Source: Nitrospirota bacterium (GTDB lineage Bacteria > Nitrospirota > JACRHJ01). Taken from it: a stretch of 64,000 nt of DNA. Shown here piece by piece: positions 231 through 32,369 of this stretch. The DNA lies in assembly GCA_021789495.1 (NCBI GenBank), contig JAJYJM010000001.1, positions 89,004 to 153,003 on the forward strand, read 5' to 3'. Position numbers and translations under genes: made by a program. A model generated the notes under the pieces. That model saw only the letters and a list, made by a program, of their open reading frames with translations. It was not told the origin of the DNA and did not search any database. Positions within the stretch are counted from its first letter, which is position 1; each line of letters starts with the position of its first letter.

Positions 231-306
231 GCCGAGGTAGCTCAGTTGGTAGAGCAGAGGCCTGAAAAGCCTCGTGTCCGCAGTTCGATTCTGCGCCTCG
301 GCACCA
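231..306 (+). tRNA. tRNA-Phe (anticodon GAA), CCA encoded
   Basis: Cloverleaf read by hand: acceptor GCCGAGG/CCTCGGC, D-arm AGCTCAGTTGGTAGAGC, anticodon loop CTGAAAA (GAA), T-arm GTTCGATTC, discriminator A, CCA at 304-306. Close to E. coli tRNA-Phe. Confidence 0.9.
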
Positions 307-314
307 TCTTCCGC

Positions 315-1706
315 CTATTTTTTTACCTCCGTATAAACCCCTTCGGAGGCCTCCTTCTCCGCTTTCATCTTCTCCCAGACTACATCCGCAATCCCGCAAT
401 ATTCCTCGGAATACCTGTCCAGGTCCTTCGCCAGGTCGGTCAGTATCTTCTCCGCGCCCTCGTGTGTGGCCCTGGCGCCTGAGGCCAGAACGGCCTCCCG
501 GATAAATTCCGGTTTGTCTATCATCATGCAGGGCGTCAGCATGTTCTTGTTCGTCTTCTGCCGCTCGCGTATCGTCTTGAAGAAAGGCGACATCAAAGCG
601 TCTTTTATCTTCGTCTTCCTGATGTTGTCCACGGCGAAGTGGCAGAACACGCACGGCTCTATATCTCCGTGGGCGTTTATGTGCAGATATTTCCTGCCTC
701 CCGCGAGGCATCCGCCCACGACATGGCCGTCGTTCCAGAAGTCGGCAAGCAGTATCGGCTTCGTCTTGCGTATTCGCCAGACAGTCTCCCTGAGCGCGCT
801 CCTCTGGCTCGGCGTGGGCATGAGTTCGATATTCGGCTCCCTGCCTATGGGTATATACGAGAAAAACCACCCTACCGTGCAGCCCTTCTCAATCATCAGG
901 TCGTAATACCCGTCGGAAGTAATGGTCTCGAAGTTCTTCCTTGTGGCGGTGCAGGAGAAGCCGAAAAGCACCCCCGCGTCCTTCAGGAGGTCCATGGCTT
1001 GCATGACCTTCCGGAAGTGGCCTTTGCCGCGCCTCAAGTCTGTCTCCTCCTCGAACCCCTCCACGCTTATGCAGGGCAGGACGTTGCCGAGTTCCGCAAC
1101 CTCTTTTACCTTCTTCTCGTCGAGAAGCCCGCCATGCGTAAATACCAGGAACGCGACATCGTCGTGCTTCTCGAATATCTTAAGCAGATCCTGCCGGAAG
1201 AAGGGTTCCCCGCCGGAGACGACGCAGAAGAACACCCCCATCTCCTTCATCTGGTTTATTACGCCGTCAACCTCGTCGAAAGAGAGCTCGTCCGTCCTCT
1301 TGTAGCTCCCGGCATAGCACCCGAAGCAGTTGAGATTGCAGCGCATAGATGGCGAAATGACGTAAAGACCGGGCGGGTAGAAACCTCCGCCTTCGTCCTG
1401 GAACGCCTTCCGCCTGTTCGTGCCGACGAGCATCTGGCCTACTATGAACGTCTTTACCAGCCTCTTGCGGACGTTCGGGTGGGTTTCCCTCAGTATCTTC
1501 TTTGCGACCTGGAGGCTGGGGTGGCCGTCCATGAACATCCGGCGGATGGAGCGGATTGCCTTGACGTAATGGTCCTTTTTGGCGAACTTCTCGGCAAGGT
1601 ATGTAAACCTGATAAGGTTTTCATCAGAACTGTTCCCGATAATCCCAAGAAGCGCGTCCGCCGCCTGGGTAATAGTATAATTTTTAAGCTGCTCAAAATA
1701 ACTCAT
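315..1706 (-). CDS. radical SAM protein with C-terminal Cys-rich (SPASM-like) region
   Basis: CNLNCFGC (CxxxCxxC) radical SAM motif and GGEPF motif. C-terminal Cys cluster (GGCLAGG...CVFCHF...). 463 aa. Confidence 0.8.
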   Translation of the reverse strand: MSYFEQLKNYTITQAADALLGIIGNSSDENLIRFTYLAEKFAKKDHYVKAIRSIRRMFMDGHPSLQVAKKILRETHPNVRKRLVKTFIVGQMLVGTNRRKAFQDEGGGFYPPGLYVISPSMRCNLNCFGCYAGSYKRTDELSFDEVDGVINQMKEMGVFFCVVSGGEPFFRQDLLKIFEKHDDVAFLVFTHGGLLDEKKVKEVAELGNVLPCISVEGFEEETDLRRGKGHFRKVMQAMDLLKDAGVLFGFSCTATRKNFETITSDGYYDLMIEKGCTVGWFFSYIPIGREPNIELMPTPSQRSALRETVWRIRKTKPILLADFWNDGHVVGGCLAGGRKYLHINAHGDIEPCVFCHFAVDNIRKTKIKDALMSPFFKTIRERQKTNKNMLTPCMMIDKPEFIREAVLASGARATHEGAEKILTDLAKDLDRYSEEYCGIADVVWEKMKAEKEASEGVYTEVKK

Positions 1707-1777
1707 TAATTAAATTACCCTCCGATCCTTAATCTGGTAGCGTAATTTTTACAGAATGGAGGGCGTCAAGTCAAGGA

Positions 1778-2689
1778 TTAATCCCAAAAATAATAAAAAT
1801 TAAACCATTGCTCAGGATGACGGCGGACATATTTCTCAAATATTATGGCTATTTTGCTTATATTTGCTTTTAAGTCCGACTCGACGTCTCCGGTATCCGT
1901 CATTTCTATCGGAGGCTCCGCCACGGGATGGTATCTGCCGTCTTCCCCCATAATCGTAAACGCGGGTATCAGCGGCGCGCCAGTCTTCATTGCAAGGAGC
2001 ACGGGGCCTTTCGGGAGCATGGCCGGTTTTCCGAAGAAATCGGCCATAATCCCGGATTTATTCAATACCCTGTCACCCTGTATCGCCACAAGTTCGTTTC
2101 TTTTAAGCGCATTATATGTGCCCAGAGCGAACCCGGCTGGATTATCAGGAGAGATTATTTTTATCCCTCTTATCTCCTTGTTTTTGTCCAGGAGCCGGTT
2201 CTGCTCCTCTGAGTTATACAGATACTGCACGACGTTCACCTTGAACCCCAGGTATTTCAGCAGTATGCCACCCAGTTCCCAATGACCGATATGCGCGGTG
2301 AGGATTATCGCCCCTTTTCCGGACTCGATGGCCTTTTTTATATTTTCAAGGCCAATAAATTCCGGAACTCTCGATGCAATCTCGGCGTCGCTCATGCGCT
2401 CGAAGCGGAAGAGGTCTAGCAGGAACCTCCCGTGCCTGCGCCAGAGCCTGCGCACTACCTTTCGCTTCTCACGCGGGGAGACATCCGGGCCGAGGACGTG
2501 GTCGAGGTTTCTTACCTGCTCCGGGACTATATTTTCCGATTTATAGTAGAACAGCCAGTCGGCGATCCTGTTTCCTATGAAATTGGCGACAGGGGCGGGA
2601 ATATATTTTGCTCCCCAGGAAATCCACCAGTAGATGGAATGCCTGTCCAGACGGTAGGAATGCGTCCCCTTAACCATCCAAAAGCCCAA
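1778..2689 (-). CDS. lysophospholipid/lipid A-type acyltransferase (LpxL/HtrB family)
   Basis: 303 aa with an AHIGHWE (H-x4-E/D-like) motif and general LpxL-like architecture. Overlaps the downstream rSAM by about 20 nt, so the start may be the internal Met at 2677. Confidence 0.6.
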   Translation of the reverse strand: MGFWMVKGTHSYRLDRHSIYWWISWGAKYIPAPVANFIGNRIADWLFYYKSENIVPEQVRNLDHVLGPDVSPREKRKVVRRLWRRHGRFLLDLFRFERMSDAEIASRVPEFIGLENIKKAIESGKGAIILTAHIGHWELGGILLKYLGFKVNVVQYLYNSEEQNRLLDKNKEIRGIKIISPDNPAGFALGTYNALKRNELVAIQGDRVLNKSGIMADFFGKPAMLPKGPVLLAMKTGAPLIPAFTIMGEDGRYHPVAEPPIEMTDTGDVESDLKANISKIAIIFEKYVRRHPEQWFNFYYFWD

Positions 2690-4226
2690 GCCTGCTCAAG
2701 GCTTCCCTCATAGGCCCCCGGAACGGGCGGGGAGTCTCGGAGAGAAATGCGTCCCTTACGTCCTTTACCAGGACTTTCCCGGAACCCTGAGATGCGGACG
2801 TTTGCGCCTTTTTCCCAACCGCCTTGCGCGCAATAGGCCGCAAAAGCGCCGGAACCTCCGACAGCACTTTCTCGAAGACCTCGCGGGCAAGGGCGTCCCA
2901 GGAGATTTCTCTCAAATTTGATTCCGGGCGCATCCCCTGAAGGATGCCCTTCGCGGGATAGCAGACCCAGTCCGGGTGTCTCTTGAAATAATCTCCGGCA
3001 ATCGAATACAGATTATCCCCCAGTTTGTCGGAGACATAAAACTTCGGCTCCATAAGCGGGTCGCCTGGGTCAATCAGCCTTTCTTTTACGGCGAGACGGG
3101 CAAGAGGCGTGCCGGGGTATATCCGGATTCCGGCGACGGCGAAGACCTTGTCGGGTTGGACGTCTTCCAGGGTGTCGAAGGTCTCCCTTAAGGTGTCAAT
3201 ATCCTCGCCGGGACCGCCGAGGATGAGGAAAACAAGGCACATCAACCCCGCTTCCTTTGCGGCAATTATTGACCTTGCGGCCTCTTTTTTATCGAAATTC
3301 TTGCCGAGTTTTGAAAGCACCCTGTCGGAGAGCGAATCCGCGCCGACCTCCACGCTCTCGCATCCCGCCCGTTTCATCTTCTCAAGAAGTTTTGCGTCGA
3401 GACCGACGGGGCTTGCGAGGCAGCCGAAAGAAGGCTTTATGCCGCGGCTGATTATTTCGTCGCATATTGCAAAGGCGTGTTCCGGCGGGTTGTTGAAGAT
3501 ATTGTCCACAAAATAAAAAGGCGCGGAAAGTCCCCTGTCCATCGCGCCGGCCATCTCCCGCACGACTTCTGCCGGTGGCCTGAGGCGCATTTTTACCCCT
3601 TCCAGGCCGGGATATGTGCAATAGACGCACGAGAACGAACATCCGCGCTTGGACTGTATGCCGAGCATGTCATATTTATTCGCCGGGAAAATATCCCACG
3701 CGGGCATGAAGAACGAACCGGAGCCGAGCTGACTTGGCGGGTTCCGGATATAAGAGCCGTCCTCGAACCTGCAAAGGCCCGGAACGGAAGCATGTGGGAT
3801 TTTGCCCTGAAGAGCGTCCGCAAGCATCGGCACGGACATTTCGCCCTCGCCGGCTATCCCGTAGTCCGCCCCCAGGAATTCGAGCGCGGCCTTCGGCATA
3901 ATGGAATAGCCCGGCCCGCCGACGACAACCGGGGCATTCGTTTCCCGTTTTATCAGGGCTATGGTTTCTTTGTAATCCGGCAGGAGGAAGCGGCTGGAAG
4001 ACTCTATGTTGCGTATCGAGACGGCTATGAGTTCAGGTTTGGCGGAAGCAATGGTATGCTTTAGCAGGGACTCCGGATTGTCCGCGAAGAGTAGGTCGAG
4101 CGCGCGCACGTCGTGCCCAGCCCGGCGAAGCGCAGAGGCTACAAGCGCAAGGCCGAGCGGGGCCGCCGTGAACGGTTCCGTTTCCCTGTTTACGGAAACA
4201 AGCAGGATGCGCAAATGAAACTCCAA
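2670..4226 (-). CDS. B12-binding domain radical SAM protein
   Basis: N-terminal B12-binding-like region (RILLVSVN...GLALVASALRRAGHDV), then RGCSFSCVYC (CxxxCxxC). 518 aa. Confidence 0.8.
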   Translation of the reverse strand: MEFHLRILLVSVNRETEPFTAAPLGLALVASALRRAGHDVRALDLLFADNPESLLKHTIASAKPELIAVSIRNIESSSRFLLPDYKETIALIKRETNAPVVVGGPGYSIMPKAALEFLGADYGIAGEGEMSVPMLADALQGKIPHASVPGLCRFEDGSYIRNPPSQLGSGSFFMPAWDIFPANKYDMLGIQSKRGCSFSCVYCTYPGLEGVKMRLRPPAEVVREMAGAMDRGLSAPFYFVDNIFNNPPEHAFAICDEIISRGIKPSFGCLASPVGLDAKLLEKMKRAGCESVEVGADSLSDRVLSKLGKNFDKKEAARSIIAAKEAGLMCLVFLILGGPGEDIDTLRETFDTLEDVQPDKVFAVAGIRIYPGTPLARLAVKERLIDPGDPLMEPKFYVSDKLGDNLYSIAGDYFKRHPDWVCYPAKGILQGMRPESNLREISWDALAREVFEKVLSEVPALLRPIARKAVGKKAQTSASQGSGKVLVKDVRDAFLSETPRPFRGPMREALSRLGLLDG

Positions 4227-4283
4227 ATCCCCCTCAATCCCCTTTGAAAAAGGGGGAAGCCGAAGGCAGGGGATTTTTCCCCG

Positions 4284-4859
4284 TTACTTCCTCAGTTTCT
4301 CCACGAAATCCGTCAGTTTGTCGCCCAGGTCCTGCGCCTCGTGGAGCACCATCTCCCATTTGTCGTTCGTGTTGCGCAGGCCGGATGAGTTCGAGTGCCT
4401 GAACTTTGCCAGTACCTCCCCGGTCTTAGCGTCCTTGATGTCGCCTTTTACGGAAACGTTGACGCCTCCCGCTCCCCAGCCTACAAACAACCTTGTGACT
4501 GCGCTTCCGAGGTCTATCTTCGTTATCTCGCCCTCGATTATCATATCGGCCTTGTCGGCGTTCTTCCCGTCCTTGTCAATCAGGAATGCGTTTATGCCAT
4601 CGCCCTTGAGGTCGCTGACGACCGTCTTGGAAAGCCGCTTCTGCACCCTTTCCAGGAATCCGCCCTTCATCCTCCTCATCTCATCCCTGTTCACGTTATC
4701 GTAGTTTATGTTATCCGTGGAAAAGAGTTTGACGCCGATGGATTTATAGTCTTTCAGACTTTTATCCGTAAGCACTTTCGTATGATCGAGACTTCCCGCA
4801 AAAGACAATGACGGCACGGCAATAACAGCCGTTAAAACGAGAAATAAAAATTTCTTCAT
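4284..4859 (-). CDS. secreted/lipoprotein of unknown function
   Basis: Signal peptide MKKFLFLVLTAVIAVPSLSFAGS. Charged, Lys/Asp-rich mature part with no catalytic motif. Confidence 0.5.
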   Translation of the reverse strand: MKKFLFLVLTAVIAVPSLSFAGSLDHTKVLTDKSLKDYKSIGVKLFSTDNINYDNVNRDEMRRMKGGFLERVQKRLSKTVVSDLKGDGINAFLIDKDGKNADKADMIIEGEITKIDLGSAVTRLFVGWGAGGVNVSVKGDIKDAKTGEVLAKFRHSNSSGLRNTNDKWEMVLHEAQDLGDKLTDFVEKLRK

Positions 4860-4940
4860 GTTCCAACCTCCTATCGTGATTAGATCTGAAAAATCCCACA
4901 GACTATCCCGATAAACCGGAAAATGCGCCTCCTTTCTTTT

Positions 4941-6296
4941 TTATTTACTTTTTAATATCTGTCTGGCCGCCGCCCTTCCGGAGAGTATCGACGATGCGGT
5001 GCACCCGCCGACCGGCAGAACCGTAGATCCTACGCAGAACAGTCCGCGCACCGGAGTCGCCGTAGACATCTTTTCGTAATGCACGCTTTCGGCAACCGGA
5101 GAGACCGAGCTTGTAAAACCGAAATTGGTCGCGTAATCGGCAGGGGTGTAAAGTCTGCTGTCCACGGTGTTTTCACTGAAACCCGGTATCAGTGAATCCG
5201 CCCTGCCCATTATCCTTCCGGCTTCCGCCTCAATCGCCTCTCTCGGAACGGCGCCTCTCGGGACAAGGAATTTTATCGTCCCCGCCAGATGTTCCTCCGC
5301 AGCGCCGTATGCGGCATGCGGGACGGAAATGACGAACATGTTGTCTTCCGGGAAAGAACCTTCCTTCAGCGTCCTGAACATCCCGCTGACGCCGGCCGGG
5401 AACATGGCATAGACATGCGCGCCGGGGATTATTTTAGCACCTTTCTTAAACACTGTAAATACGCTCGCCATGCTGAATCCTTCCTTGTAGTAGCCGAGCG
5501 TGTTAAGAAATTCCGACGGGAAATCTTTTCTGTCTGCAAGAGAATGCACCGTGTGAAGGATTCCAGTCCCGCTTATTACATTTACCGACTCCATCTCCCT
5601 GCCGTCGAGCAGTATTCCACGCGCACTGCCGTCCCGGATGATTATTCTGTCGGGCTGCGCATTATACACTATCCCCCCGCCGTTTTCGCGTATGACTGAG
5701 GCCAAGAGTTCCGGCAGTCTCCCGGAACCCGCCCTCGGTATAAACGGCTTGTCGTATCCGTACGTCCTGCCGAAGACAAGATTGAACCAGTGCGAAGGCA
5801 TGTTCTCAGGATTGTTGCCGGAAAAAAACGCCCCGACGTTGAATATCTCCCTCAGGCTCCCGTTTTCCGTAATCCTGTTTACGAGTTCGCTGTACCCGGA
5901 TATTTTCCTGTAGCGGTTGAACATTATCTGTCCACCCGTCCGAAGCCCCAGTTTTCCCATATCTCCGGCGTTCATGCCCATGCCCCGGAAATCCCGGAAT
6001 GTATGAAGGCCGGGCGGGATTGTCATGGATGAATTTCCGTGCCTTGCGATAACCTTGAACCATACGGGGTCAAGCTCTTTTTTCTTGCCGAGTTCTGAAA
6101 ATATCCCCAGTATCTTTTTCCCGAAATAGTCCGCGCCGATGTCGAAGCGATGGCCCATAAGCTCCACGCTCCGGCAGCGCCCGCCCGGCTCGGACATCTT
6201 CTCAAGCACAAGCACTTTCCTGCCGGCCCGCGCGAGATACGCCCCGGCGGACAGCCCGCCCAGCCCCGCGCCGATTATTATCGCGTCATATTTCAT
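4941..6296 (-). CDS. FAD/NAD(P)-binding oxidoreductase, phytoene desaturase (CrtI/CrtD)-like
   Basis: N-terminal dinucleotide fold MKYDAIIIGAGLGGLSAGAYLARAGRKVLVLEK. About 450 aa, typical of the CrtI family. Confidence 0.7.
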   Translation of the reverse strand: MKYDAIIIGAGLGGLSAGAYLARAGRKVLVLEKMSEPGGRCRSVELMGHRFDIGADYFGKKILGIFSELGKKKELDPVWFKVIARHGNSSMTIPPGLHTFRDFRGMGMNAGDMGKLGLRTGGQIMFNRYRKISGYSELVNRITENGSLREIFNVGAFFSGNNPENMPSHWFNLVFGRTYGYDKPFIPRAGSGRLPELLASVIRENGGGIVYNAQPDRIIIRDGSARGILLDGREMESVNVISGTGILHTVHSLADRKDFPSEFLNTLGYYKEGFSMASVFTVFKKGAKIIPGAHVYAMFPAGVSGMFRTLKEGSFPEDNMFVISVPHAAYGAAEEHLAGTIKFLVPRGAVPREAIEAEAGRIMGRADSLIPGFSENTVDSRLYTPADYATNFGFTSSVSPVAESVHYEKMSTATPVRGLFCVGSTVLPVGGCTASSILSGRAAARQILKSK

Positions 6297-7491
6297 TTTT
6301 TATTCTCTCGACCGCCTGTTTAGCCGTATATACGCACGACTCTATGCATGGCAGGCGGTAGAAATCTCCAACGATGTAAGCTCCGGGGACTTCCGTCTCG
6401 ACGCCCCTTGTCCTGCTTGCCGGAGGGATGAGCGTTATCGCGGGCGACCAGCCGACCTTCGGAAGCTCCTTGTATTTCCCGAACACCGCTTCAATATCAG
6501 CGTCGGGCCTGTAGAGAAACATCCCGGCGATGGTCCTGCCGTCCGGGAGATGCTTCATCTCTCCGCCGTGCACGCCGTGCGGGTTGTTGAATTTCGAGAA
6601 GAGAAGGACGTCGTACTTCCGATATTGCGGACAGCGCGCCTCGAATATGACGCCGCGCGTCTTGGTGCACTTCATATTGAAATTTATCTCCGGCATTATT
6701 CTGCCGAGGCTCTCCTGCCCGGTGGCGAATACGATATTATCTGCGGTTTCCTTAAACGGCTTTTCGTCAGGCCCTATAATATTTACATCAAATGCTCCCG
6801 ATGAGTTCTTCCCGGCGCTCTCGATCCTGAATCCCGCCCTTACAACGCCCGGCATTCGCCGGACGAGTTCCGACGCCACGTCCGCCATGCCCTTGTGCGG
6901 CACGCGTATCGGCGTATCGCCGTAAGCGAGCAGAAAGAGGCCGTGGTCGGCGGCGATGTGCGGCGGGTCTATGTATCCGAAGCTTGAGAACGGCTGGACG
7001 ATATAATCGAGCATTTTCCTGGAATATCCCATGTCCCTGACACAGAACTCTTCGAGGGAGACGGAATGCAGTTCCTGGAGCTTCGGGTCCCAACTCTCAA
7101 GGCGGAAATCGAGACCCTTTATAAATTTTACGAGCCTCCTCCACTTCATATATTCCGAAATGGAAAAAAGCCCGCTTCTGAACATCGACCATGAATCGAG
7201 ACCGGTAATTTTATCGCCGACCTGGAGCGCGAATTTCTTCAGCCTTATAAGCTCATGCGGCACTCCAAGCTCGGCAATCAGTTCCGTAAAACCGCGGTTC
7301 AGTTCCGGCGCGAACATCATCGCGCCCTTGTTTATGTATACACCTTCATACTCAAGCGTCGCAAAACGACCGCCGGCTTCCGGCCTCTTTTCGTATACGA
7401 CAGGCAGGAAACCTTCATTCCGGAGGTAGTAAGCGGTGGACAGGCCGGCGATTCCCGCGCCGAATATCAAAATCCTTTTATTCAATTGCAT
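6286..7491 (-). CDS. FAD-dependent oxidoreductase (amine oxidase/protoporphyrinogen oxidase-like)
   Basis: RILIFGAGIAGLSTAYYLRNEGF...EKRPEAGGR Rossmann motif. Overlaps the neighbouring genes by 10-11 nt. Confidence 0.7.
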   Translation of the reverse strand: MQLNKRILIFGAGIAGLSTAYYLRNEGFLPVVYEKRPEAGGRFATLEYEGVYINKGAMMFAPELNRGFTELIAELGVPHELIRLKKFALQVGDKITGLDSWSMFRSGLFSISEYMKWRRLVKFIKGLDFRLESWDPKLQELHSVSLEEFCVRDMGYSRKMLDYIVQPFSSFGYIDPPHIAADHGLFLLAYGDTPIRVPHKGMADVASELVRRMPGVVRAGFRIESAGKNSSGAFDVNIIGPDEKPFKETADNIVFATGQESLGRIMPEINFNMKCTKTRGVIFEARCPQYRKYDVLLFSKFNNPHGVHGGEMKHLPDGRTIAGMFLYRPDADIEAVFGKYKELPKVGWSPAITLIPPASRTRGVETEVPGAYIVGDFYRLPCIESCVYTAKQAVERIKNEI

Positions 7492-9132: not shown

Positions 9133-9191
9133 GTCATTCCCGCCCCGGCTTTATACATACCGGGGCAGGCTCCGGTGTGAATCCAGGTTTT
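9133..9191. repeat. REP/MITE-like intergenic repeat (GTCATTCCCG...hairpin...GAATCCAGGTTTT)
   Basis: Near-identical inverted copy at 40929-40982. Related copies at 19664-19701, 19755-19783 and 34031-34061. Contains a CCCCGG/CCGGGG stem. Confidence 0.7.
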
Positions 9192-9627
9192 ATTGTGGTT
9201 TGCCGTTTTCTATTATTTCTTTTATCCTCTGCATGTTCTTTTTCGAGTGCTCGTTTATCCGGCCTTCCGCTGTCTTGTCGTCCACCGGCGCTTTCTCGTC
9301 CATCGAGAAATTCTGCTCCCAGGTCATCTCCACGCCGCCGTCCTTCTCGACGTATGTCCAGAGAAGCTCCATGTATTTGAACGGGAACATCGGCTCCTCG
9401 CGCTTCGCCGTGCATCTGTGCCCAGCCTTGTCGAGGACGCGGCTCGAACGCCAGGACTTACCTTCTTTATTGGTGAGCTGAAAAGTTATCCTGTTCCCTT
9501 CGCGCGAAAGAATCTTTGCGTCTGTATATTCGTCGAAAAGCTCCGGCCAGCGTTCGATGTCGTTTGTAATATCGAACACCTTTTCGTACGGCGCATTGAT
9601 GAATATGGAATTTTTCGTATGTGCCAT
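9190..9627 (-). CDS. SRPBCC family protein (polyketide cyclase/aromatase-like START fold)
   Basis: 145 aa. The N-terminus FINAPYEKVFDITNDIERWPELF is typical of Polyketide_cyc2/SRPBCC. Confidence 0.65.
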   Translation of the reverse strand: MAHTKNSIFINAPYEKVFDITNDIERWPELFDEYTDAKILSREGNRITFQLTNKEGKSWRSSRVLDKAGHRCTAKREEPMFPFKYMELLWTYVEKDGGVEMTWEQNFSMDEKAPVDDKTAEGRINEHSKKNMQRIKEIIENGKPQ

Positions 9628-10398: not shown

Positions 10399-10631
10399 GG
10401 CCTTGCCGCCTCGTTTGAGAAATATTCTATTATCCCGCGAACCGTGCTCCCCCCGTTTATCGCTCCGTCAGGAATCTTAACCGAGAATTCCTTTTCCAGC
10501 GCAACCAGCAGTTCGACCATCTCCGTCGAGTCAACTCCAAGGCCCGTTTTTAAAGTGGCTTCCGGACGCAGCTCGCTTTTGTCTATGCCAATCTCCCCGA
10601 AGACCTTCTCTATTCTCTCTTCTACCGGCAT
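10395..10631 (-). CDS. acyl carrier protein
   Basis: 78 aa. GVDSTEMVELLVALEKEF carries the phosphopantetheine-Ser motif (DSx). 4-nt overlap with the upstream gene. Confidence 0.8.
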   Translation of the reverse strand: MPVEERIEKVFGEIGIDKSELRPEATLKTGLGVDSTEMVELLVALEKEFSVKIPDGAINGGSTVRGIIEYFSNEAARP

Positions 10632-10646
10632 CGCTGTACCCCTTGC

Positions 10647-11852
10647 TCAAGGTCTGCCTATTAAAAGACAGGCGTTCACACCGCCACGCCCGATGGAATT
10701 TATAACAATATTCTCTTTGATTATTTTTTTTCTGCCGCTATTATCGAAGAAATCAAACTCAGGCTCGTTTACATTCAGACACGGCGTCTCCCCGTGATTC
10801 AGCGCCATGCACGCGAAAGCCGCATCGAGCGCGCCCGATGCGCCAAGCGAATTTCCTATCTGAGGCTTAGGAGAATAAAACGGCATCTCTCCAACCATGT
10901 CTCCAAATATTCTTGAGATCGCCCTGCCCTCGGATAAATCGGCATATTTCCCCGCGTTGGCCGACGGTATCGCCATGCCAATCTCGGACGCGGTAATATT
11001 CGCCTCACGCATGGCAATGGTCATGGCGCGTGCCATGCCGTCGCCCGACACATCGGGGATTATCGGGTGCATCCCGTCGCTCGTATGTCCGAATCCTTTT
11101 ATCTCGGCATATATCCCGGCGCCTCTCGCAACCGCCCTGTCCATCTCCTCGACAACGAGCGTCGCCGCGCCTTCTCCGATTATGTAGCCGTCGCGGTCTT
11201 TACAAAACGGCCTGTAGCGCCCTGTCCGGCTCAGTTCGCCTGATGTGTTGCAGCATAAGAGCGCGTAGGGCGATACCGGCGCCTCGGCGCCTCCAGCGAG
11301 CATCACATCCGCCCTGCCCATCTTTACTGCTCGCGCGGCATATGCGATGGCCATGTGCGAACTGGCGATGTCTGAGATTATGGTCTTGGAGAAGCCTTTC
11401 AGCCCATAGAAAATGGATACCTGTCCCTGCGGCGCGGCGGGGAACCATGCGGTCGCCTGGTAGGGGCTTACCTCCCTCAGGCCGCGCGTCCAGAGGTCTC
11501 TAAGCTCCTCCTCGGCAAACGACCAGCCGCCAAGGGCGTTGCCGAAGGCAATGCCGATATTTTCCTTGTTCTCGGCGTCAAGGTCTATCCCACTGTCTTT
11601 GAATGCGGCGTCGGAAGCAGACAGCGCCATATGGGAAAACCTGTCGAGCTTCTTGATGAGCCTCTTTGTAAAAATCTCTTCGCTCCCCGGGTCTAAAACC
11701 AGGCCCGCATGACGCGAAGGATAGCGCGAGGCGTCGAAACGGTCTATTTCGCCGATAAAGCTTTCTCCGGATGACAGCCTTCCGAAAAATTCATCCGGGG
11801 TATTTCCAGCGGGACTTACTACCCCGATGCCCGTTATGACCGCTCGTCTCAT
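10647..11852 (-). CDS. beta-ketoacyl synthase-like protein lacking the active-site Cys (KS-beta / chain-length-factor-like partner)
   Basis: Thiolase fold, aligns along its length with the upstream KS. The GLKGFSKTIISDIASSH region has Ile/Asp at the position of the catalytic Cys. Start at the internal ATG 11852, which gives an ATGA overlap with the KS-alpha stop. The ORF track gives 11963. Confidence 0.7.
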   Translation of the reverse strand: MRRAVITGIGVVSPAGNTPDEFFGRLSSGESFIGEIDRFDASRYPSRHAGLVLDPGSEEIFTKRLIKKLDRFSHMALSASDAAFKDSGIDLDAENKENIGIAFGNALGGWSFAEEELRDLWTRGLREVSPYQATAWFPAAPQGQVSIFYGLKGFSKTIISDIASSHMAIAYAARAVKMGRADVMLAGGAEAPVSPYALLCCNTSGELSRTGRYRPFCKDRDGYIIGEGAATLVVEEMDRAVARGAGIYAEIKGFGHTSDGMHPIIPDVSGDGMARAMTIAMREANITASEIGMAIPSANAGKYADLSEGRAISRIFGDMVGEMPFYSPKPQIGNSLGASGALDAAFACMALNHGETPCLNVNEPEFDFFDNSGRKKIIKENIVINSIGRGGVNACLLIGRP

Positions 11853-13123
11853 GCCCGCCTCAGTATCATGGATGAATGAATGCCGGAGAAGCCGCTGCTC
11901 GTTTTTATCAGCACGTTCACCTTTTTGTCTCTGGCCTCGTTCGGAACATAGTCGAGGTCGCATTCCGGGTCTTGCTCCCTGTAATTTGCGGTCGGGGGGA
12001 TTACGCCGCGCTCAATGACCATCGCCGACAGCGCGAGTTCAATGGAATTCGCCGCCGAAAGCGGATGTCCTATCATGGATTTTATGGAGCTTACCGGCAC
12101 GCGGTATGCCATGTCTCCGAGGGCGGATTTTATCGCGTTCGTCTCGAAAACGTCGTTCTGCTCCGTGGAGCTTCCGTGCGAGTTTATGTAGTCTATGCCG
12201 GAGGCGTCAACCCGCGCCTCGTCCATTGCGAGCCTTATTGAACGGGCCAGCGCGTCGCCGTCTTTCGGCAGGTCTGTCATATGGTATGCGTTGGATGTCG
12301 AGCCGAAGCCCGCTATCTCCGCATATATCCTCGCGCCGCGCCGGACGGCATGATCGTATTCTTCGATGACGAGGATCCCCGCGCCTTCCGAGATGACAAA
12401 ACCGTTCCTTGTCCGGTCAAAGGGGCGCGAGGCCGCCTCCGGCTCGCCGTTATGCTTCGAGAGCGCCTTTATGACGTCGAACGCCGCAAGGGCGATAGGC
12501 GTAATCGGGGCCTCGGACGCCCCGGTTATCATAACGTCGCATAGGCCAAGCTGGATGTTTTCGTATGCGTAGGCAACGGAATCGGTCCCCGCCGTGCAGC
12601 CGGTCGAAATGACGCACGACCCGCCTTTCAGCCCGTAGCGCGCGGCAATGAAATTGGCGGGAGAATTGAATATCGACGCATCGTAGAGAAACGGCGAAGC
12701 AAGCGCCGGGTCGATGGGCTCGTGTCCGTTCTGCGTAACTCTCAGGAACTCCTCTTCCATCCACTTCGTGCCGCATATGGCGTTTGCAAGCGCCACGCCG
12801 CACCGCTCGCGGTTCACCTTATCAAACTCCAGCCCGGCATCATCCACCGCTAGCTTCGCCCCGGCCAGGGCGAATTGCAGATACCTGTCCATTCCCGACG
12901 CATCTTCATGCGAGATGCCGAAGAGCGCGGGATTAAAACCCTTCACCTCCGCCGCTACCTTCGACAGAAACCCGGAGGTATCGAACGCCGTGATTAACCC
13001 CGTCTGGGTGCGCGCGTTTATCATGGAGTCCCAGAAGGCGTCCTTGCCGATGCCTCCCGGAGCGATGACGCCCAGGCCCGTTATGACAACCCGCCGGACG
13101 GTCGACCGTCTTCGGAGATTCAA
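11849..13123 (-). CDS. beta-ketoacyl-ACP synthase (KS-alpha type, FabF/type II PKS KS family)
   Basis: VISTGCTAGTDSVAYA active-site Cys motif, HGSST His motif, GLGVIAPGG N-terminus. The start is uncertain: the 13171 ATG overlaps the upstream gene by 52 nt, and a TTG at 13123 overlapping the TGA stop (TTGA) is a plausible alternative. Confidence 0.85.
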   Translation of the reverse strand: MNLRRRSTVRRVVITGLGVIAPGGIGKDAFWDSMINARTQTGLITAFDTSGFLSKVAAEVKGFNPALFGISHEDASGMDRYLQFALAGAKLAVDDAGLEFDKVNRERCGVALANAICGTKWMEEEFLRVTQNGHEPIDPALASPFLYDASIFNSPANFIAARYGLKGGSCVISTGCTAGTDSVAYAYENIQLGLCDVMITGASEAPITPIALAAFDVIKALSKHNGEPEAASRPFDRTRNGFVISEGAGILVIEEYDHAVRRGARIYAEIAGFGSTSNAYHMTDLPKDGDALARSIRLAMDEARVDASGIDYINSHGSSTEQNDVFETNAIKSALGDMAYRVPVSSIKSMIGHPLSAANSIELALSAMVIERGVIPPTANYREQDPECDLDYVPNEARDKKVNVLIKTSSGFSGIHSSMILRRA

Positions 13124-13655: not shown

Positions 13656-14650
13656 AGTCCGAACCTCCTCAGCATTTCATCGACCGACAGATACCTGTTC
13701 GTTTTTTCGATCTCCTTCACAAGCTCGACGGCCTTGCCGTTCAGCCTCGCCTCGCGCCCCGTCCTGTCTGCCTCCCTGACTACCTCGCCGTTTAAATAAT
13801 CCACCTCGGAATCCCTCCCGCGCATGACGCTCTGGAGGACGGAGCCGGGTAGCGGCAGGTGCGAAAGACCGCGCATTATGTTCCCGTAAATCTTAGGGCC
13901 TATTTCCTTCGGCGCGCACAGAAGCGATTTAAGTTTTTCGAGCGGAAGGTCCGGGAGGTCTGCCATCTCGCTGCCTGCGGCCTCGAAAACATCCCATGCC
14001 TCACGCATAAGCGAGAGGCCCAGGGAGCAGACCTCGTCTTCCGAAAACGTCTCCTGGAGGTCTTTGCCGAGGATGCAGGCGACGGCGTTATTTAAGTTCA
14101 GTATCAGCTTCGCCCTATGCACGGCCTGTATGTTTTCCGTCACATGCACCTCGAAGGCGGCGGACAGTATCTTCCCGACCTTCTCCACGATACCCCCGCC
14201 ATCCCGCCCGAATGCCTTGCCGATGACAAGCCCGCCGGGGAAATTATACGTAACGCGCCCAGGCTCTTTATACGTGGCTCCGAACATGACGACGGAAGAC
14301 ACTATCCGCTTGCTGCCGAGGATTCTTCCGGCTATCTCGTCGGCCATAAGACCGTTCTGCATCGTCAGCACCGGGAAATCTCCCATCCCCGCCATCTGCC
14401 TGCAAGCCGCTTCCATGTCCTGCGTCTTTACGGCAATCAGCGTCAGGTCTGGAATGAATTCCAGGGTTCTCGCGGCGTAGATTACATAATTTCTCCCGCC
14501 GGCTATGCCGTCGATTGAAAGGCCGTTATGATTGATTGCTCTGACCTGGCGCGGGTCCCGGCTCACGAGCGTAACCGCGTGCCCCTTTTCATGGAGCATC
14601 GCGCCCGCGACGCATCCTATTGCCCCTGCGCCGATTACAGCGATTTTCAT
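13652..14650 (-). CDS. ketopantoate reductase (ApbA/PanE) family 2-dehydropantoate 2-reductase-like oxidoreductase
   Basis: MKIAVIGAGAIGCVAGAML Rossmann start. C-terminal SVLQSVMRGRDSEVDYLNGEVV matches the KPR family signature. Confidence 0.75.
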   Translation of the reverse strand: MKIAVIGAGAIGCVAGAMLHEKGHAVTLVSRDPRQVRAINHNGLSIDGIAGGRNYVIYAARTLEFIPDLTLIAVKTQDMEAACRQMAGMGDFPVLTMQNGLMADEIAGRILGSKRIVSSVVMFGATYKEPGRVTYNFPGGLVIGKAFGRDGGGIVEKVGKILSAAFEVHVTENIQAVHRAKLILNLNNAVACILGKDLQETFSEDEVCSLGLSLMREAWDVFEAAGSEMADLPDLPLEKLKSLLCAPKEIGPKIYGNIMRGLSHLPLPGSVLQSVMRGRDSEVDYLNGEVVREADRTGREARLNGKAVELVKEIEKTNRYLSVDEMLRRFGL

Positions 14651-16590
14651 GAATCGATATCCGCTTCGCTTAAGATAACGCCGGTTTCGTTTACGTTCTC
14701 ATCCCATAAAATACTGTTTATTATCTCCTTCGGCCTTCCCGTGTTGATGTCCCAGCTGTGGCAGGCGTAGTATTCGTCGAGCATCCCGTCGTAGAGCGCC
14801 CTGTCAAGCTTCATTTTTCTTGACTCTTCGTCCAGCCCGTCCTGCAATGCAAGCGGCTCGAAATATCTCGCGGGCGGATAGTCGTCTTTGCGTCCCACGC
14901 CTTCGCGGCAGATGAACCTGCGCTCCACGTCAGTAATCGCGTTGCCCGCCTCGAACACCTCTTCCGGGGTCATATCAATGCCGCTTGCCGTTTTTATGAG
15001 GTCGCTGAAGACCCTGAAGCCGAATACGCCCGGTTCGGGCAGCGTGTGGAACGCAAGGAGCTTGCAAAGGCCGAGGGCGTCGAAAAGCGCGAGGTAGCAC
15101 TCCCACCACCAGACCACGCGCCCCTTGCCGCCATATTTCAGCGGGTCCGGCTCCACGGGGCCGCCGTAGATTCCCTCCAGGAAATTCCTGTCGAACTCGA
15201 AGGCCTCCCACGGGCACCGGCTGCGCAGGTGATCCGCGCCCCTGGTTGAAGTGGAGACGCCAAGGGCGAACGCCTTGATGAAGCGAAGGTCTACCGGGTC
15301 GGACTGCGGGAGGTTCTTTACCCATATCAGGCGGCTTTTCGATGCTTCTCCGAGCTTTGCCGAGGCTTCTTTCGCGCCGTCGGCAAGGAAATCTCCAAAA
15401 CCCCTTCGGAACGCAATATCCTCCAGAAGCCCGGCGACCGTCTCCGGAGCGTTCCAGTCGAGACCGACTCCGCCAGTCTCGGCGTCCCCTATGATGCCTT
15501 CCTTGTATAACTCTATCGCCCAGGCGATGATGTTTCCGGCGGAGCTTGCGTCTATTCCGAGGCGGTTAAGCCTGTCGTTCAGCATCAACACGGCCTCGGC
15601 GGAATTTATGCCGAGAACCGGCCCCATGTGTCCCATAACGCCGTATTCCGGGCCTTCGCCGGAAAGCCCGGCGTGCTTTCCTTTATCTATCCTGTATGAA
15701 TGCCTGCATGAGACTACGCAGTTCCTGCACCCGCGCCTGCCGGAATAGTAACCGGTTTCAAGCGTCTGCGGGGAGAGGTCTCCCGGCTCTTTCATTTTCG
15801 TGGACAGGCCGTTATACGCCCGCCCCATCTCGATATTCGTGTTTATTACATTATAGAGATGCCCGGTCCCGTAACGCGCAAGGTCCTGCGTAAGGAACTC
15901 CGCCTTCAATTTCCTGTTTATTTCGCGCGTCAGAGACGCGAAGTTTTCGGCGTCGCGCGGATGCGTTTTCCCGCTATCGACCGCCACGACCGCCTTGAGG
16001 TTCTTGCTCCCCATAAGGCAGCCCATGCCCGTGCGGCCCGCGGCGTTCTTCCTGCCGTGCATGATGCAGGCGAAGCGCACGAGGTTCTCTCCCGCGGGGC
16101 CTATGCATGCAGTCTGAACCCCCTCGCCGCACTGCTCCTCTATAGCCCTCTGCGTATCGAAGGAGTCCATGCCCCAGACGCGCGAGGCGTCCTTTATCTC
16201 GGCAATCGCGCCGCCGCCGTTTTTCCTGATGAGCAGGTAAACAGGTTTTTTTGATTTCCCCGTAATGAATAGGTGCCTGACGCCCGTGGAAACGAGGGCG
16301 CATCCAAAATCGCCTCCGATATTCGCGTCTCCGAAAAGGCCGCTCTCCGGGCTTTTGCCGGTAACGGTCAACCTCGCCGATGACGGCCCCGGCATCCCGG
16401 TTAATAGCCCGGCCCCGAATATCAACGGGTTTTCCGGACTCAGGGGGTCAAGCCCGGCCCCGGTGTTTTCAAGCAGAAGCGCGCTGTTTATTCCCCGCCC
16501 GCCGATATACCCGCGAATCAAGGCTTCCGGCATATCTCTGGTTTCACAGGAGCCGGAGGATAAATTTATGTATAAAATCTTATGGTTCAT
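14647..16590 (-). CDS. aldehyde:ferredoxin oxidoreductase (AOR) family, tungsten/molybdopterin enzyme
   Basis: 647 aa. N-terminal MNHKILYINLSSGSCETRDMPEALIRGYIGGRG is typical of the AOR family, and the Cys ligands for the 4Fe-4S cluster are present. Confidence 0.85.
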   Translation of the reverse strand: MNHKILYINLSSGSCETRDMPEALIRGYIGGRGINSALLLENTGAGLDPLSPENPLIFGAGLLTGMPGPSSARLTVTGKSPESGLFGDANIGGDFGCALVSTGVRHLFITGKSKKPVYLLIRKNGGGAIAEIKDASRVWGMDSFDTQRAIEEQCGEGVQTACIGPAGENLVRFACIMHGRKNAAGRTGMGCLMGSKNLKAVVAVDSGKTHPRDAENFASLTREINRKLKAEFLTQDLARYGTGHLYNVINTNIEMGRAYNGLSTKMKEPGDLSPQTLETGYYSGRRGCRNCVVSCRHSYRIDKGKHAGLSGEGPEYGVMGHMGPVLGINSAEAVLMLNDRLNRLGIDASSAGNIIAWAIELYKEGIIGDAETGGVGLDWNAPETVAGLLEDIAFRRGFGDFLADGAKEASAKLGEASKSRLIWVKNLPQSDPVDLRFIKAFALGVSTSTRGADHLRSRCPWEAFEFDRNFLEGIYGGPVEPDPLKYGGKGRVVWWWECYLALFDALGLCKLLAFHTLPEPGVFGFRVFSDLIKTASGIDMTPEEVFEAGNAITDVERRFICREGVGRKDDYPPARYFEPLALQDGLDEESRKMKLDRALYDGMLDEYYACHSWDINTGRPKEIINSILWDENVNETGVILSEADIDS

Positions 16591-16598
16591 TCCAGAGT

Positions 16599-16841
16599 TT
16601 ATTCCGGCATATTAAACCCGGAGTTCCTTGCGGTATCGCGCATACTCTTTTGGAACGGCGCCGGGGTTTCGGAGATAAACGCGGCGACAATATCCTGTTC
16701 TTCCACCAGCGCGGCTCCGCGCGCGGAAGCGTTTTCCTCCGCCTTCTTCCCGGCCAGCTTCTCCGCCATTTTCCTCTGAAAAAACGGTATCGTGGAAATC
16801 ATCTTATCGAACTTAGCCTTTCCTCCATGCTCCCAATCCAT
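16599..16841 (-). CDS. small protein with PCP_red-like (protochlorophyllide reductase 57 kDa subunit C-terminal-like) domain
   Basis: 80 aa. DIVAAFISETPAPFQKSMRDTA resembles the C-terminus of the 17327-18733 product (DDICAAWLRATPAPFRKLIEEKI). Confidence 0.4.
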   Translation of the reverse strand: MDWEHGGKAKFDKMISTIPFFQRKMAEKLAGKKAEENASARGAALVEEQDIVAAFISETPAPFQKSMRDTARNSGFNMPE

Positions 16842-16856
16842 AAAAATATCTCCTTT

Positions 16857-17330
16857 TTATTTCATGCCTCCTGCCTGCCCTCGCGCGGGAATTTCTGCGC
16901 CCTCAAGGGCGGATTTCATCGCGTTCAGTATCCGGACTATGTTCTCGTCGTGCATCCTGCGGTATGCAAGTTTCCATAAAATCCGGTTTATGCCGCCCAT
17001 GACTTCGTAGTCCATCAGGAAATGGACTTCGTTTGCCTTTTCGCTTTGTTTTATATACACTTGGTCCGTGCCCCGGAACATGCCGGTGATGAATCTCCTC
17101 GATATTTCATATCCGGGGGTTATCGATATTACTTCGACGTCCCATTCCGGCGCGAACGGCCTGTAAACCTTCTGGTGAAAGCACGTGCCGACCTTTACCT
17201 CCCCGGAATCCGCCCGGCTGTATTTCATGGGAGATTCGCCCGGCCACCAGGCGCTCTCGCCCCAGAGGACGATTTCTCTATATATCGCGTCTACGGGCGC
17301 GTTTATCGTTATAAAATGATGGCTTATCAA
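16857..17330 (-). CDS. SRPBCC family protein (polyketide cyclase/dehydrase-like)
   Basis: FITINAPVDAIYREIVLW START-fold N-terminus. Start reset to TTG at 17330, overlapping the upstream TGA. The ORF-track ATG at 17405 would overlap the upstream gene by 79 nt. Confidence 0.6.
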   Translation of the reverse strand: MISHHFITINAPVDAIYREIVLWGESAWWPGESPMKYSRADSGEVKVGTCFHQKVYRPFAPEWDVEVISITPGYEISRRFITGMFRGTDQVYIKQSEKANEVHFLMDYEVMGGINRILWKLAYRRMHDENIVRILNAMKSALEGAEIPARGQAGGMK

Positions 17331-18733
17331 CTCCTCATCTCCATTATTTTTTCCTCTATCAGCTTCCTGAAAGGCGCGGGAGTAGCCCTCAGCCATGCGG
17401 CGCATATGTCATCTACGCCCACCTTCCCGCCATTTGAGGCGCGAACCTCGGACGCGATCTTTTTCTCGGCGGCCTGACGAAATACTGCGGGCACAAAGTC
17501 AAGGAGCTTCTTATGCGCCTTGCCGGCATCCGCGTCCCATTCATCGGCGGAACCCGTTGAATCTTCACGGTAAATATCGCCGGAGACCAGGGATTCCAGC
17601 AGGGCCTCATATTTTCCCGCCGCCACGCCGACCATCCCTTCGTCCACCTTCAGCGCTTTTCTGGCAATCAGGCCGCAGTAGCCGCACTCCCGGCAGTCGC
17701 TCGTGGCGCAGTCTTTCGTCTTGAAAAAGCTGAGGAAATTAGATGGAATCCTGGAGTTGTCCAGCACGAGGCCTTCCGTGACCGGATAGTCCGTAATATC
17801 GGCGAATTCCATTAATTTTGCGGTATTTATATACTCATCCCTAAGGAGATATTTCACGTTTGCCGGCAGAAAGGCCTTCTTGCGCGGTAGATTTAGAAGC
17901 TCGACCAGATTTCCATCGTATCGTCTTTCGGAATAAGCCTTAAGGTAGGACAGCAGCGTCTCCGTGGTCTTGTAGCGGTCGATAATCTTGAGGCAGTCGA
18001 TCCCGGCCATCTCGTAATCCTCGACATCTTCCGGGCGTATCCACCTGATTTTTATAAGTTCTTCCGGATGCCGGACCTTTTCGCTCGTGCAGGAAAAATA
18101 GCAGTGGTCTACTAGAAATCCCTCAGAGGAATGCCCGCCCTGGGATCCATGCGTCATTACATTGGCGTGATAGAAAGAGCGCGGGCACCCGTATAGGCAG
18201 CCGGGGTTTGCAATCAGAATAAGTTTACACTTTACTGCCTTACGGATGGCCTCCAACGTCTTGAAATCCCTGTTTATTTCCTCTGAGAGCACAATGGCGT
18301 CGGCGCCTATGGATTCCCAGTACTGGGCCTTCCGCACGCTCTCGACCCGCGCCCAGCTCGATACGGCAATCTTAAGTTCCGGGAAATGCCTCCTGATTAT
18401 CTCAAGGAGATAGGGAATTGTTACCGTCACCCAGTCCGCCCCGGTGGACTCTACCCAGCCTATGTGTTGGATTATCTTGGCGAATTCGTCTTTTCTGTAT
18501 TCCCTGTTGTCGAGACAGGAGGCGTTCAGCAGGAAATTGAAGGAATATCCGGCCTTCCTTGCGGATTCGATATATTTTCCGGCGTCCGATTCGGTTATTT
18601 CCGGGGCTACGAAGGACGCCCTGCCCCCTGCGATAAGGCTTCCAGGGATGCCGCCGAAAAGCTCCACGTCCGGAAATTTCTCCAGTCCTTTCAGGAGATT
18701 AACGTCCCAGTTGCAGGCCAGTTCGAATTTCAT
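17327..18733 (-). CDS. U32 peptidase-family-like TIM-barrel protein with C-terminal PCP_red-like domain
   Basis: The N-terminus ELACNWDVNLLKGLEKFPDVELFGG has the pattern of U32 proteins (ELLxPAGN..LKAAI..GADAVY.G). It has a Cys cluster GCLYGC...CYFSC...CRECGYC and the C-terminal PAPF motif. Family assignment is tentative. Confidence 0.4.
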   Translation of the reverse strand: MKFELACNWDVNLLKGLEKFPDVELFGGIPGSLIAGGRASFVAPEITESDAGKYIESARKAGYSFNFLLNASCLDNREYRKDEFAKIIQHIGWVESTGADWVTVTIPYLLEIIRRHFPELKIAVSSWARVESVRKAQYWESIGADAIVLSEEINRDFKTLEAIRKAVKCKLILIANPGCLYGCPRSFYHANVMTHGSQGGHSSEGFLVDHCYFSCTSEKVRHPEELIKIRWIRPEDVEDYEMAGIDCLKIIDRYKTTETLLSYLKAYSERRYDGNLVELLNLPRKKAFLPANVKYLLRDEYINTAKLMEFADITDYPVTEGLVLDNSRIPSNFLSFFKTKDCATSDCRECGYCGLIARKALKVDEGMVGVAAGKYEALLESLVSGDIYREDSTGSADEWDADAGKAHKKLLDFVPAVFRQAAEKKIASEVRASNGGKVGVDDICAAWLRATPAPFRKLIEEKIMEMRS

Positions 18734-19287
18734 GCCGCATCCTTTCCGGCCTCAAGCCTGGCGATTATTCCTTCGAGAAATTTTATCTCCGCCGCCGAGT
18801 GGGCGAGGTAATGCTCCGGAATAAAAAGGAAATTTTCCGGCGCGCGTTTTGAGACAAGCTCCTCCCTGAACCTCTCCGCTTCGGCATGATATTCCTTAAG
18901 TCTTACACGGAGTTCCCGTATCTGGGCAAGAAAACTGCCACGGTCGGATTCCCGGAGGAAGTAAAAAGAGATGTCGAGCGCCAGGTGCGGACGCTCGAAA
19001 TTCGTAATGTTTTCCTGGATTAAGCTGTCGAAAGTCCTGACGCCCTCGTCGGTAATGTGGTATATCTGCTTTTCGGGATGCGCGGTGTCCTTGAGGGCGC
19101 TTTTGGTTACAAGGCCGCGTTTTTCAAGGGTTTTCAGGTTATGATAGAGGGAGCCGGAGGTGATGGGCGCCACATGGACGAGTTCCTCGTCCACAAGTTG
19201 CTTTATCTCGTAGCCATACATGGGCTTTTTCTTGAGAAGACCAAGAATAAGCACCTCTTTCGACATGGTCGTATAGAGACCGGCCAC
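18730..19287 (-). CDS. PadR family transcriptional regulator
   Basis: ILGLLKKKPMYGYEIKQLV...HNLKTLEKRGLV winged-helix signature. GTG start at 19287 with a GGGGGA RBS. An alternative ATG at 19266 is possible. First gene of the co-directional cluster. Confidence 0.8.
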   Translation of the reverse strand: MAGLYTTMSKEVLILGLLKKKPMYGYEIKQLVDEELVHVAPITSGSLYHNLKTLEKRGLVTKSALKDTAHPEKQIYHITDEGVRTFDSLIQENITNFERPHLALDISFYFLRESDRGSFLAQIRELRVRLKEYHAEAERFREELVSKRAPENFLFIPEHYLAHSAAEIKFLEGIIARLEAGKDAA

Positions 19288-32231: not shown

Positions 32232-32369
32232 AGATGCAATTCCTCAATAATTTCCTAAGCTTTCCTATTTTACCAGAGGCGGATTCAAAGTCAAGAAAAA
32301 GTTTTCCCTTGATTAAAGCCGGCTTGGATGGTAAATTCTTAATATTGAACGTTTTTCTTGAGGTCATCC

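Follow-up and report, generated by a model that had tools for sequence, protein, structure and literature searches.

Here we examine a pair of adjacent ketosynthase (KS) genes, and the gene cluster around them, in a window of 64,000 nucleotides from contig JAJYJM010000001.1 of a Nitrospirota bacterium. The upstream gene encodes a catalytic ketosynthase, KSalpha, and the downstream one a full-length partner of the same fold, KSbeta, which corresponds to the chain-length factor (CLF) of type II polyketide synthases (PKSs) and matches both Pfam ketosynthase domains (PF00109, 2.3e-42; PF02801, 5.6e-18). Next on the same strand come an acyl carrier protein (ACP), a PF04199 'Cyclase' protein, which we take to belong to the OxyN-type cyclase family, and an SRPBCC polyketide cyclase/aromatase (Table 1). 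This gene order is that of a minimal type II PKS followed by cyclases of the OxyN and TcmN types. KS, CLF and ACP genes accompanied by these two kinds of cyclase form the published layout of the 'ancestral' aromatic PKSs of non-actinomycetes. The ACP gene lies 15 nt past KSbeta and was not noted in the original prediction for this locus.

KSalpha starts at a TTG that overlaps the stop codon of the gene upstream as TTGA. The ATG of KSbeta (11852..11850) overlaps in turn the KSalpha TGA (11851..11849), with a GAGG 8 nt upstream, so that the translational coupling through ATGA originally proposed for the pair is borne out and its gene calls and coordinates are correct. A 4-base overlap of the KSalpha and CLF coding sequences is likewise annotated in three Streptomyces plasmid clusters. 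A longer KSbeta reading frame, beginning at an ATG at 11963, was considered and rejected because homologues are 401–415 aa long and begin at the equivalent of MRRAVITG. In three orthologous loci labelled Omnitrophota or Planctomycetales (L021, L034, L079) the two genes are separated by a gap of 300–800 nt, with no overlap.

Table 1. Features of the ketosynthase pair, its cluster and its surroundings in the window.
Feature	Position	Strand	Remarks
tRNA-Phe (GAA)	231..306	plus	Rfam and tRNA scans
Lipid-like set: radical SAM/SPASM, LpxL-like acyltransferase, B12/radical SAM, DUF4410, two amine-oxidase/phytoene-desaturase-like flavoproteins	315..7491	minus	
Amidohydro_2 protein, 319 aa	7482..8441	minus	conserved core; counterpart in L084
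SRPBCC polyketide cyclase/aromatase, 145 aa, TcmN-type monodomain	9190..9627	minus	PF10604/PF03364
PF04199 'Cyclase' protein, 255 aa	9631..10398	minus	2.3e-30; TTG start overlaps ACP stop
Acyl carrier protein, 78 aa	10395..10631	minus	PF00550 40.5 bits, cutoff 20.8
ACP Ser35	10529..10527	minus	in GVDSTEMVE
KSbeta / chain-length factor, 401 aa	11852..10647	minus	PF00109 + PF02801, alignments, tree
KSbeta Ser297	10962..10964	minus	FabF His303 site
KSbeta Cys200-Cys201	11250..11255	minus	
KSbeta Ile162	11369..11367	minus	ATC, in TIISDIASS
KSbeta Asp161	11372..11370	minus	
ATGA overlap, KSalpha stop / KSbeta start	11849..11852	minus	translational coupling
KSalpha, catalytic ketosynthase, 424 aa	13123..11849	minus	PF00109 + PF02801
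KSalpha Cys176	12598..12596	minus	TGC, in VISTGCTAG
Two tandem TIGR04076 small proteins, 89 and 88 aa	13120..13655	minus	directly upstream of KSalpha; syntenic in most loci
ApbA/ketopantoate-reductase-like NAD(P)H oxidoreductase, 332 aa	13652..14650	minus	conserved core
Aldehyde:ferredoxin oxidoreductase (AOR), 80-aa protein (weak PCP_red match), 182-aa protein (no family match), U32-peptidase-family protein, PadR regulator	14647..19287	minus	
Biotin carboxylase (AccC-like)	26521..27858	minus	13 kb from the PKS
Sigma-54 response regulator	32358..33737	plus	main plus-strand gene

The catalytic set of KSalpha is intact, comprising Cys176, His316, Lys348, His353 and Phe412. Its best solved relatives are the actinorhodin (act) KSalpha (1tqy_A, 7e-122) and AntD (6smo_B), and it is closer to the actinorhodin KSalpha than to any FabF. 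In a neighbour-joining (NJ) tree with 100 bootstraps, whose references included the act CLF and three Streptomyces CLFs, the KSalphas of the window's family and those of Streptomyces form one clade (bootstrap 100).

In KSbeta, the residue opposite KSalpha Cys176 and FabF Cys163 is Ile162. Four alignments agree on this placement, namely BLASTP of the pair, HMMER against the sequences of FabF crystal structures, MAFFT with 120 homologues, and L-INS-i with a reference set of CLFs, KSalphas and FabF, and neither Cys nor Gln occurs at or adjoining the site in TIISDIASSHMA. An alignment artefact that hides a Cys or Gln some positions off was rejected, since neither residue is present in TIISDIASSHMA and the four alignments concur. 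In an AlphaFold2 (AF2) monomer model (pLDDT 74, pTM 0.81), residues 161–162 form the elbow between the strand 155–158 and the helix 161–177, which is the site of the KS nucleophile. The original prediction had set the cysteine of VISTGCTAG opposite TIISDIASS; the four alignments and the model uphold that pairing, and the profile alignment that it put forward as a check recovered no Cys and no conserved Gln at the active site. The remainder of the catalytic set is altered as well: in FabF numbering, His303 has become Ser297, His340 Asn334 and Phe400 Arg389, and Lys335 is kept as Lys329. With the Cys and both His missing, KSbeta would therefore form no acyl-thioester at the canonical site, where the earlier claim to this effect is supported. 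The description of the cysteine as replaced by 'Ile/Asp' was right in respect of Ile162; Asp161 sits one residue ahead of the cysteine position (Cys-1) and replaces neither Cys nor Gln. It is also not an unusual residue, since Gln-type CLFs likewise carry Glu or Asp at Cys-1.

The fold of KSbeta is that of FabF (Foldseek against the PDB, TM 0.82), and its best solved relatives are FabF enzymes (5e-72, against 9e-49 for the act CLF). Its top NCBIfam matches are also FabF-type models, with scores under the TIGR03150 and NF005589 cutoffs, and it lacks both the Cys-His-His triad and the gating Phe400 of FabF/KAS II. Both KSalpha and KSbeta match chains B and C of PDB entry 9s5h, a heterodimeric KS pair.

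How far these substitutions are typical was assessed in an ortholog family sample of 120 proteins and 80 genomes of Omnitrophota, Thermodesulfobacteriota and Nitrospirota. Throughout the 120 homologues and the 80 genome orthologs Cys-1 is Asp. The Cys site itself is not conserved, being occupied across the family by R, K, I, V, L, M, T, N, S or C. Arg is found there in 68 of the 80 genomes; the close Nitrospirota relatives of the window have Ile, Val or Leu, a second Nitrospirota group has Ser, and Lys, Thr, Met, Asn and a single Cys occur elsewhere. Gln was seen at this site in none of the 120 homologues and none of the 80 genome orthologs. The residue at the Cys site covaries with that at the His303 site: among the 120 homologues every Arg or Lys is matched by Asp or Glu (75/75) and every uncharged residue by Ala, Ser, Gly or Asn (44/44), and the pattern repeats in the 80 genomes. 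The commonest state in the family is an Asp-Arg motif with Asp at the His303 site. In the catalytic triad of FabF, Cys163 and His303 are neighbours. The covariation suggests that Arg and Asp at the corresponding sites make a buried ion pair that fills a dead pocket, and that in the Nitrospirota this pair was exchanged for Ile, Val or Leu with Ser or Ala, apparently a compensated change. Because the swap is lineage-specific and compensated, the role of the Cys site would be structural rather than catalytic.

KSbeta is under purifying selection, with ratios of nonsynonymous to synonymous substitution (dN/dS) of 0.07–0.12 against four relatives, similar to those of KSalpha, and it is therefore a functional protein. 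These ratios, together with about 100 invariant positions, led us to reject a pseudogene or decaying paralog. Positions invariant in 80/80 genomes include Trp110, Ala113, Leu117, Cys200-Cys201, Lys329 and Arg389. Trp110, Ala113 and Leu117 align with the residues Phe109, Thr112 and Phe116 that line the tunnel of the act CLF. The Cys200-Cys201 pair is present in all 80 genome orthologs, with Cys201 opposite FabF Phe202, and its first Cys is common in other non-actinobacterial CLFs too. Coupling of the genes, co-conservation of the proteins and invariance at the gatekeeper positions lend indirect support to a KSbeta that may act as a heterodimer partner with a role in chain length.

A scan of one genome per species returned 473 loci encoding relatives. 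The closest are in Nitrospirota metagenome-assembled genomes (78–89% identity). Most of the others carry an Omnitrophota or Planctomycetales label, and some belong to Thermodesulfobacteriota, among them the complete ORM2a genome. A catalogue in the literature also contains KS-CLF pairs from Omnitrophica, Nitrospirae and Planctomycetes. In the NJ tree a single clade (bootstrap 100) unites every Cys-less partner, from the window family and other Asp-Arg proteins to the canonical CLFs, and the Gln-type CLFs are a subclade nested within it. A search of 1.84 billion representatives recovered many more partners of ~410 aa with the motif [A/S/C]-D-R-A-S/G. Asp-Arg is the commonest state in the wider CLF clade. 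Those further partners that can be named are WP_007919165 of Ktedonobacter racemifer, a protein common to the clostrubin producers Clostridium beijerinckii and C. puniceum, and a protein of Archangium; the loci of all three are aromatic type II PKS clusters, and their partners belong to the wider CLF clade. Thus the Gln-less CLF with Asp at Cys-1 is the norm in the non-actinobacterial branch, and the Ile of the window is a further lineage-specific variation upon it. The original prediction was correct that KSbeta lacks the 'usual Gln'; among the CLFs sampled here that residue is confined to the Streptomyces-type subclade. As Gln is a feature of that subclade, its absence probably marks no special mechanism. 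KSbeta is a Gln-less CLF of the 'ancestral' kind, from a catalogued lineage with relatives in known aromatic PKS clusters. We found no literature on the active-site residues of non-actinobacterial CLFs, and when a Gloeocapsa relative was sought among the cluster members, only Paenibacillus and metagenome proteins were returned. Also common among the nearest representatives are fusions of ~800 aa (P0121, P0122, P0127, P0130 and others) in which a KS with the full Cys-His-His triad is joined to a KSbeta-like half that has no Cys; the residue at the Cys site of that half is varied.

The pair is conserved in those genome loci that reach far enough. Where a locus is long enough to display the whole cluster, a syntenic core almost invariably runs in the order s80, ketopantoate-reductase-like oxidoreductase, two TIGR04076 genes, KSalpha, KSbeta, (B12/radical SAM), ACP, PF04199 and SRPBCC, with Amidohydro_2 further on. 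In 72 of the 80 genome loci KSbeta has an ACP homologue downstream. The example examined from Omnitrophota has an additional MFS transporter and an SDR.

The act CLF sequence used here is identical to 1tqy_B over 406 aligned residues (100%), and it and the CLFs of the three Streptomyces plasmid clusters (L081–L083) all carry Glu-Gln or Asp-Gln at the site (AEQAGG, ADQSGG, TEQAGG, SDQAGG). In the literature this Gln is called 'highly conserved', and Gln161 of the act CLF has been linked to malonyl decarboxylation. The window system resembles the actinorhodin KS/CLF (1TQY) in that a KSalpha–KSbeta pair is followed by an ACP and that KSbeta is without the Cys and both His; the two CLFs also share an acidic Cys-1 residue (Glu160 and Asp161), the retained Lys, an Arg at the Phe400 position and a common clade. 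They differ at the Cys site (Gln161 vs Ile162) and at the gatekeepers (Phe109/Thr112/Phe116 vs Trp110/Ala113/Leu117), and the window KSbeta is the more FabF-like in overall sequence. Compared with a canonical Gln-type CLF, then, KSbeta has the acidic residue at Cys-1 and lacks the Gln at the Cys site.

A closer counterpart in cluster architecture is the C. beijerinckii/C. puniceum locus (L084; partner P0129), also from an anaerobic host, in which the gene set and order match those of the window, with identities of 45% for KSalpha, 41% for KSbeta, 51% for TIGR04076, 41% for the ACP, 45% for the PF04199 protein, 52% for the 145-aa SRPBCC protein and 27% for Amidohydro_2. Its partner likewise lacks both Cys and Gln, with Asp at Cys-1. 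In contrast to the Ile and Ser of the window, its Cys site is Arg (ADRASG) and its His303 site Glu. The clostridial cluster also has TIGR04076 fused to the ACP and encodes phosphopantetheinyl transferases, whereas the window adds AOR, the U32-family protein, an FMN reductase, radical SAM enzymes and the LpxL-like acyltransferase. The clusters of K. racemifer (KrKSCLF) and Archangium violaceum again combine PF04199 and SRPBCC cyclases with an ACP and a FabF-like, Gln-less partner with Asp at Cys-1 (SDRASG, CDRASG). Their KSalphas are 51% and their KSbetas 39–40% identical to those of the window, and the window SRPBCC cyclase is 50% identical to its K. racemifer counterpart. They differ from the window in having Arg at the Cys site, no TIGR04076 genes, and oxygen-dependent tailoring enzymes (FAD monooxygenase, SnoaL, cupin). 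Both organisms are aerobes. E. coli FabF, which gives the highest pairwise scores with KSbeta and shares its fold, is a homodimer with Cys163, His303, His340 and Phe400, none of which KSbeta has. Two other kinds of Cys-less partner of a type II KS, ApeC of the aryl polyene systems and AmcG, the 'cyclization factor' of cispentacin biosynthesis, are built differently: ApeC is about half the size, with a single thiolase half, and AmcG is without known motifs and some secondary structure, while KSbeta of the window has its full length and both Pfam KS domains.

Taken together, these observations make it probable that KSalpha, KSbeta and the ACP constitute the minimal part of an aromatic type II PKS of the 'ancestral', non-actinobacterial kind, in which KSbeta is an inert CLF with a filled pocket, and that the host is an anaerobic Nitrospirota bacterium from an uncultured lineage. 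KSalpha would then do all of the chemistry, holding the chain on Cys176 and decarboxylating malonyl-ACP by means of His316 and His353, while KSbeta would dimerise with it and shape the product tunnel through the invariant Trp110, Ala113 and Leu117. The former KSbeta pocket would be filled by an Arg and Asp ion pair in most members and by Ile162 and Ser297 in the window lineage, and Asp161 would be the acidic Cys-1 residue that nearly all CLFs carry. Chain initiation would most likely take place on KSalpha, by decarboxylation of KS-loaded malonyl. This fits a recent review, in which acetate priming is assigned to the cysteine of the KS in the KS/CLF, and the finding that a FabF-like minimal PKS from a cyanobacterium (Gloeocapsa) makes aromatic products from malonyl-CoA in vitro.

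Several points weigh against this interpretation. The proposed Arg/Asp contact and the occlusion of the pocket follow from Cys163 and His303 being known neighbours in KS enzymes, and in the AF2 monomer the interface loops (34–68, 107–139 and 192–205) have pLDDT <50. The tree is a simple NJ tree with weak internal support within the CLF clade. Lys329, Asn334 and the invariant Cys200-Cys201 could leave room for some residual chemistry in KSbeta. Finally, it is from the organisms in which they occur that we infer L084 to be the clostrubin (clr) cluster and P0129 to be ClrB.

The original prediction had offered a different priming mechanism and a purely structural partner as alternatives; the data favour the structural partner, and a different mechanism is possible, with no indication of it in the tests run. 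One form that it could take is a non-acetate starter handed to KSalpha by another enzyme, so that no CLF-assisted malonyl decarboxylation would be needed. The absence of Gln from KSbeta would fit this, as would the unusual redox enzymes (AOR, U32-family, radical SAM) of the Nitrospirota version of the cluster; such priming is common in type II PKSs according to the review, and salicyl can serve as a starter for the FabF-like PKS of Gloeocapsa. However, neither the conserved core nor the Omnitrophota version encodes a KSIII, an acyltransferase or an acyl-CoA/AMP ligase. Moreover, a residue that varies and is compensated at the Cys site is not one tuned to a single chemistry, and the Gln-less state recurs in many different aromatic PKS clusters. 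We thus regard a dedicated non-acetate starter as rather unlikely.

Two further readings appear to us much less probable still. KSbeta might have remained catalytic, using Cys200-Cys201 as a relocated nucleophile or redox switch, acting as a decarboxylase through Lys329, Asn334 and Asp161, or taking part in cyclisation in the manner of AmcG, a known KS partner with a proposed non-CLF role. The invariance of Cys200-Cys201, Lys329, Asp161 and Arg389 in the 80 genomes is in keeping with such activity, but both His of the decarboxylation dyad are lost, Cys201 occupies a pocket-lining position rather than the elbow, KSbeta is full length and within the CLF clade, unlike the AmcG protein with its missing motifs and secondary structure, and dedicated cyclases are encoded alongside; a catalytic role is very unlikely on this balance. 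The affinity of KSbeta to FabF, both in solved structures and in NCBIfam models, could alternatively mean that the pair belongs to a FabF-derived system of fatty-acid or lipid elongation, ladderane-like rather than aromatic, and genes that might serve it (a TIGR04072-like B12/radical SAM protein, the LpxL-like acyltransferase and desaturase-like FAD enzymes) lie 3–10 kb away. Those genes keep their synteny with the pair in Nitrospirota alone, while the PKS core is common across phyla. In addition, KSalpha is nearest to the actinorhodin KSalpha and groups with those of Streptomyces at full bootstrap support, polyketide cyclases of two types follow the ACP, and the core has no FabG/FabZ/FabI set. 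A lipid pathway is consequently the least likely of the explanations that we considered.

The idea that the CLF glutamine drives chain initiation stems from Streptomyces systems. The window and the 473 related loci supply natural KS/CLF pairs with Arg, Lys, Ile, Val, Leu, Ser or Thr at the Gln position, and in these pairs that residue is evidently free of catalytic constraint. They form a ready panel for testing what the CLF contributes to priming. Such pairs may also be practical to work with, as FabF-like KS-CLFs of non-actinobacterial origin have been expressed in E. coli, among them the minimal PKS of K. racemifer with the CLF WP_007919165. The cluster as a whole represents a widely conserved, uncharacterised pathway of uncultured anaerobes, probably for an aromatic polyketide. 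More speculatively, and with low expectation that every part would hold, CLF-assisted initiation may have been a late actinobacterial add-on, the TIGR04076 proteins may supply initiation, transfer or release in anaerobes, and the cluster, conserved across Omnitrophota, Thermodesulfobacteriota and Nitrospirota, may yield in all of them a common aromatic polyketide, made without oxygen and serving the physiology of its producers, perhaps lipid-anchored in Nitrospirota, rather than a lineage-specific antibiotic.

The TIGR04076 proteins have three conserved Cys and a His. They lie beside KSalpha in most loci of the family, and in C. beijerinckii (L084 7260-7787 and 11656-11946) they are fused N-terminally to the ACP. 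In an Omnitrophota locus the two are fused to each other (L042 8130-8735), and they are absent from the clusters of the aerobic K. racemifer and Archangium. Our search for relevant literature on TIGR04076 found none.

Among the genes flanking the core, AOR also occurs in Thermodesulfobacteriota versions of the cluster. Downstream lie the FMN reductase and Amidohydro_2, then the two amine-oxidase-like flavoproteins, DUF4410, the B12/radical SAM protein, the LpxL-like acyltransferase and the radical SAM/SPASM protein, a lipid-like set that is syntenic as a set with the PKS core in Nitrospirota loci only. At 334.7 bits, the B12/radical SAM protein falls short of the cutoff of 360 for TIGR04072 ('lipid biosynthesis (ladderane-type)'). 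An AccC-like biotin carboxylase lies at some distance in the window, and in one Omnitrophota locus the gene for the alpha subunit of the acetyl-CoA carboxylase carboxyltransferase adjoins the cluster (L042 5174-6121); these genes could be tied to malonyl-CoA supply, or their positions could be coincidence. The tRNA-Phe gene is the only RNA gene that the Rfam and tRNA scans detected in the window. The block that contains the sigma-54 response regulator is the only one with a lower GC content (0.51) and a positive AT skew.

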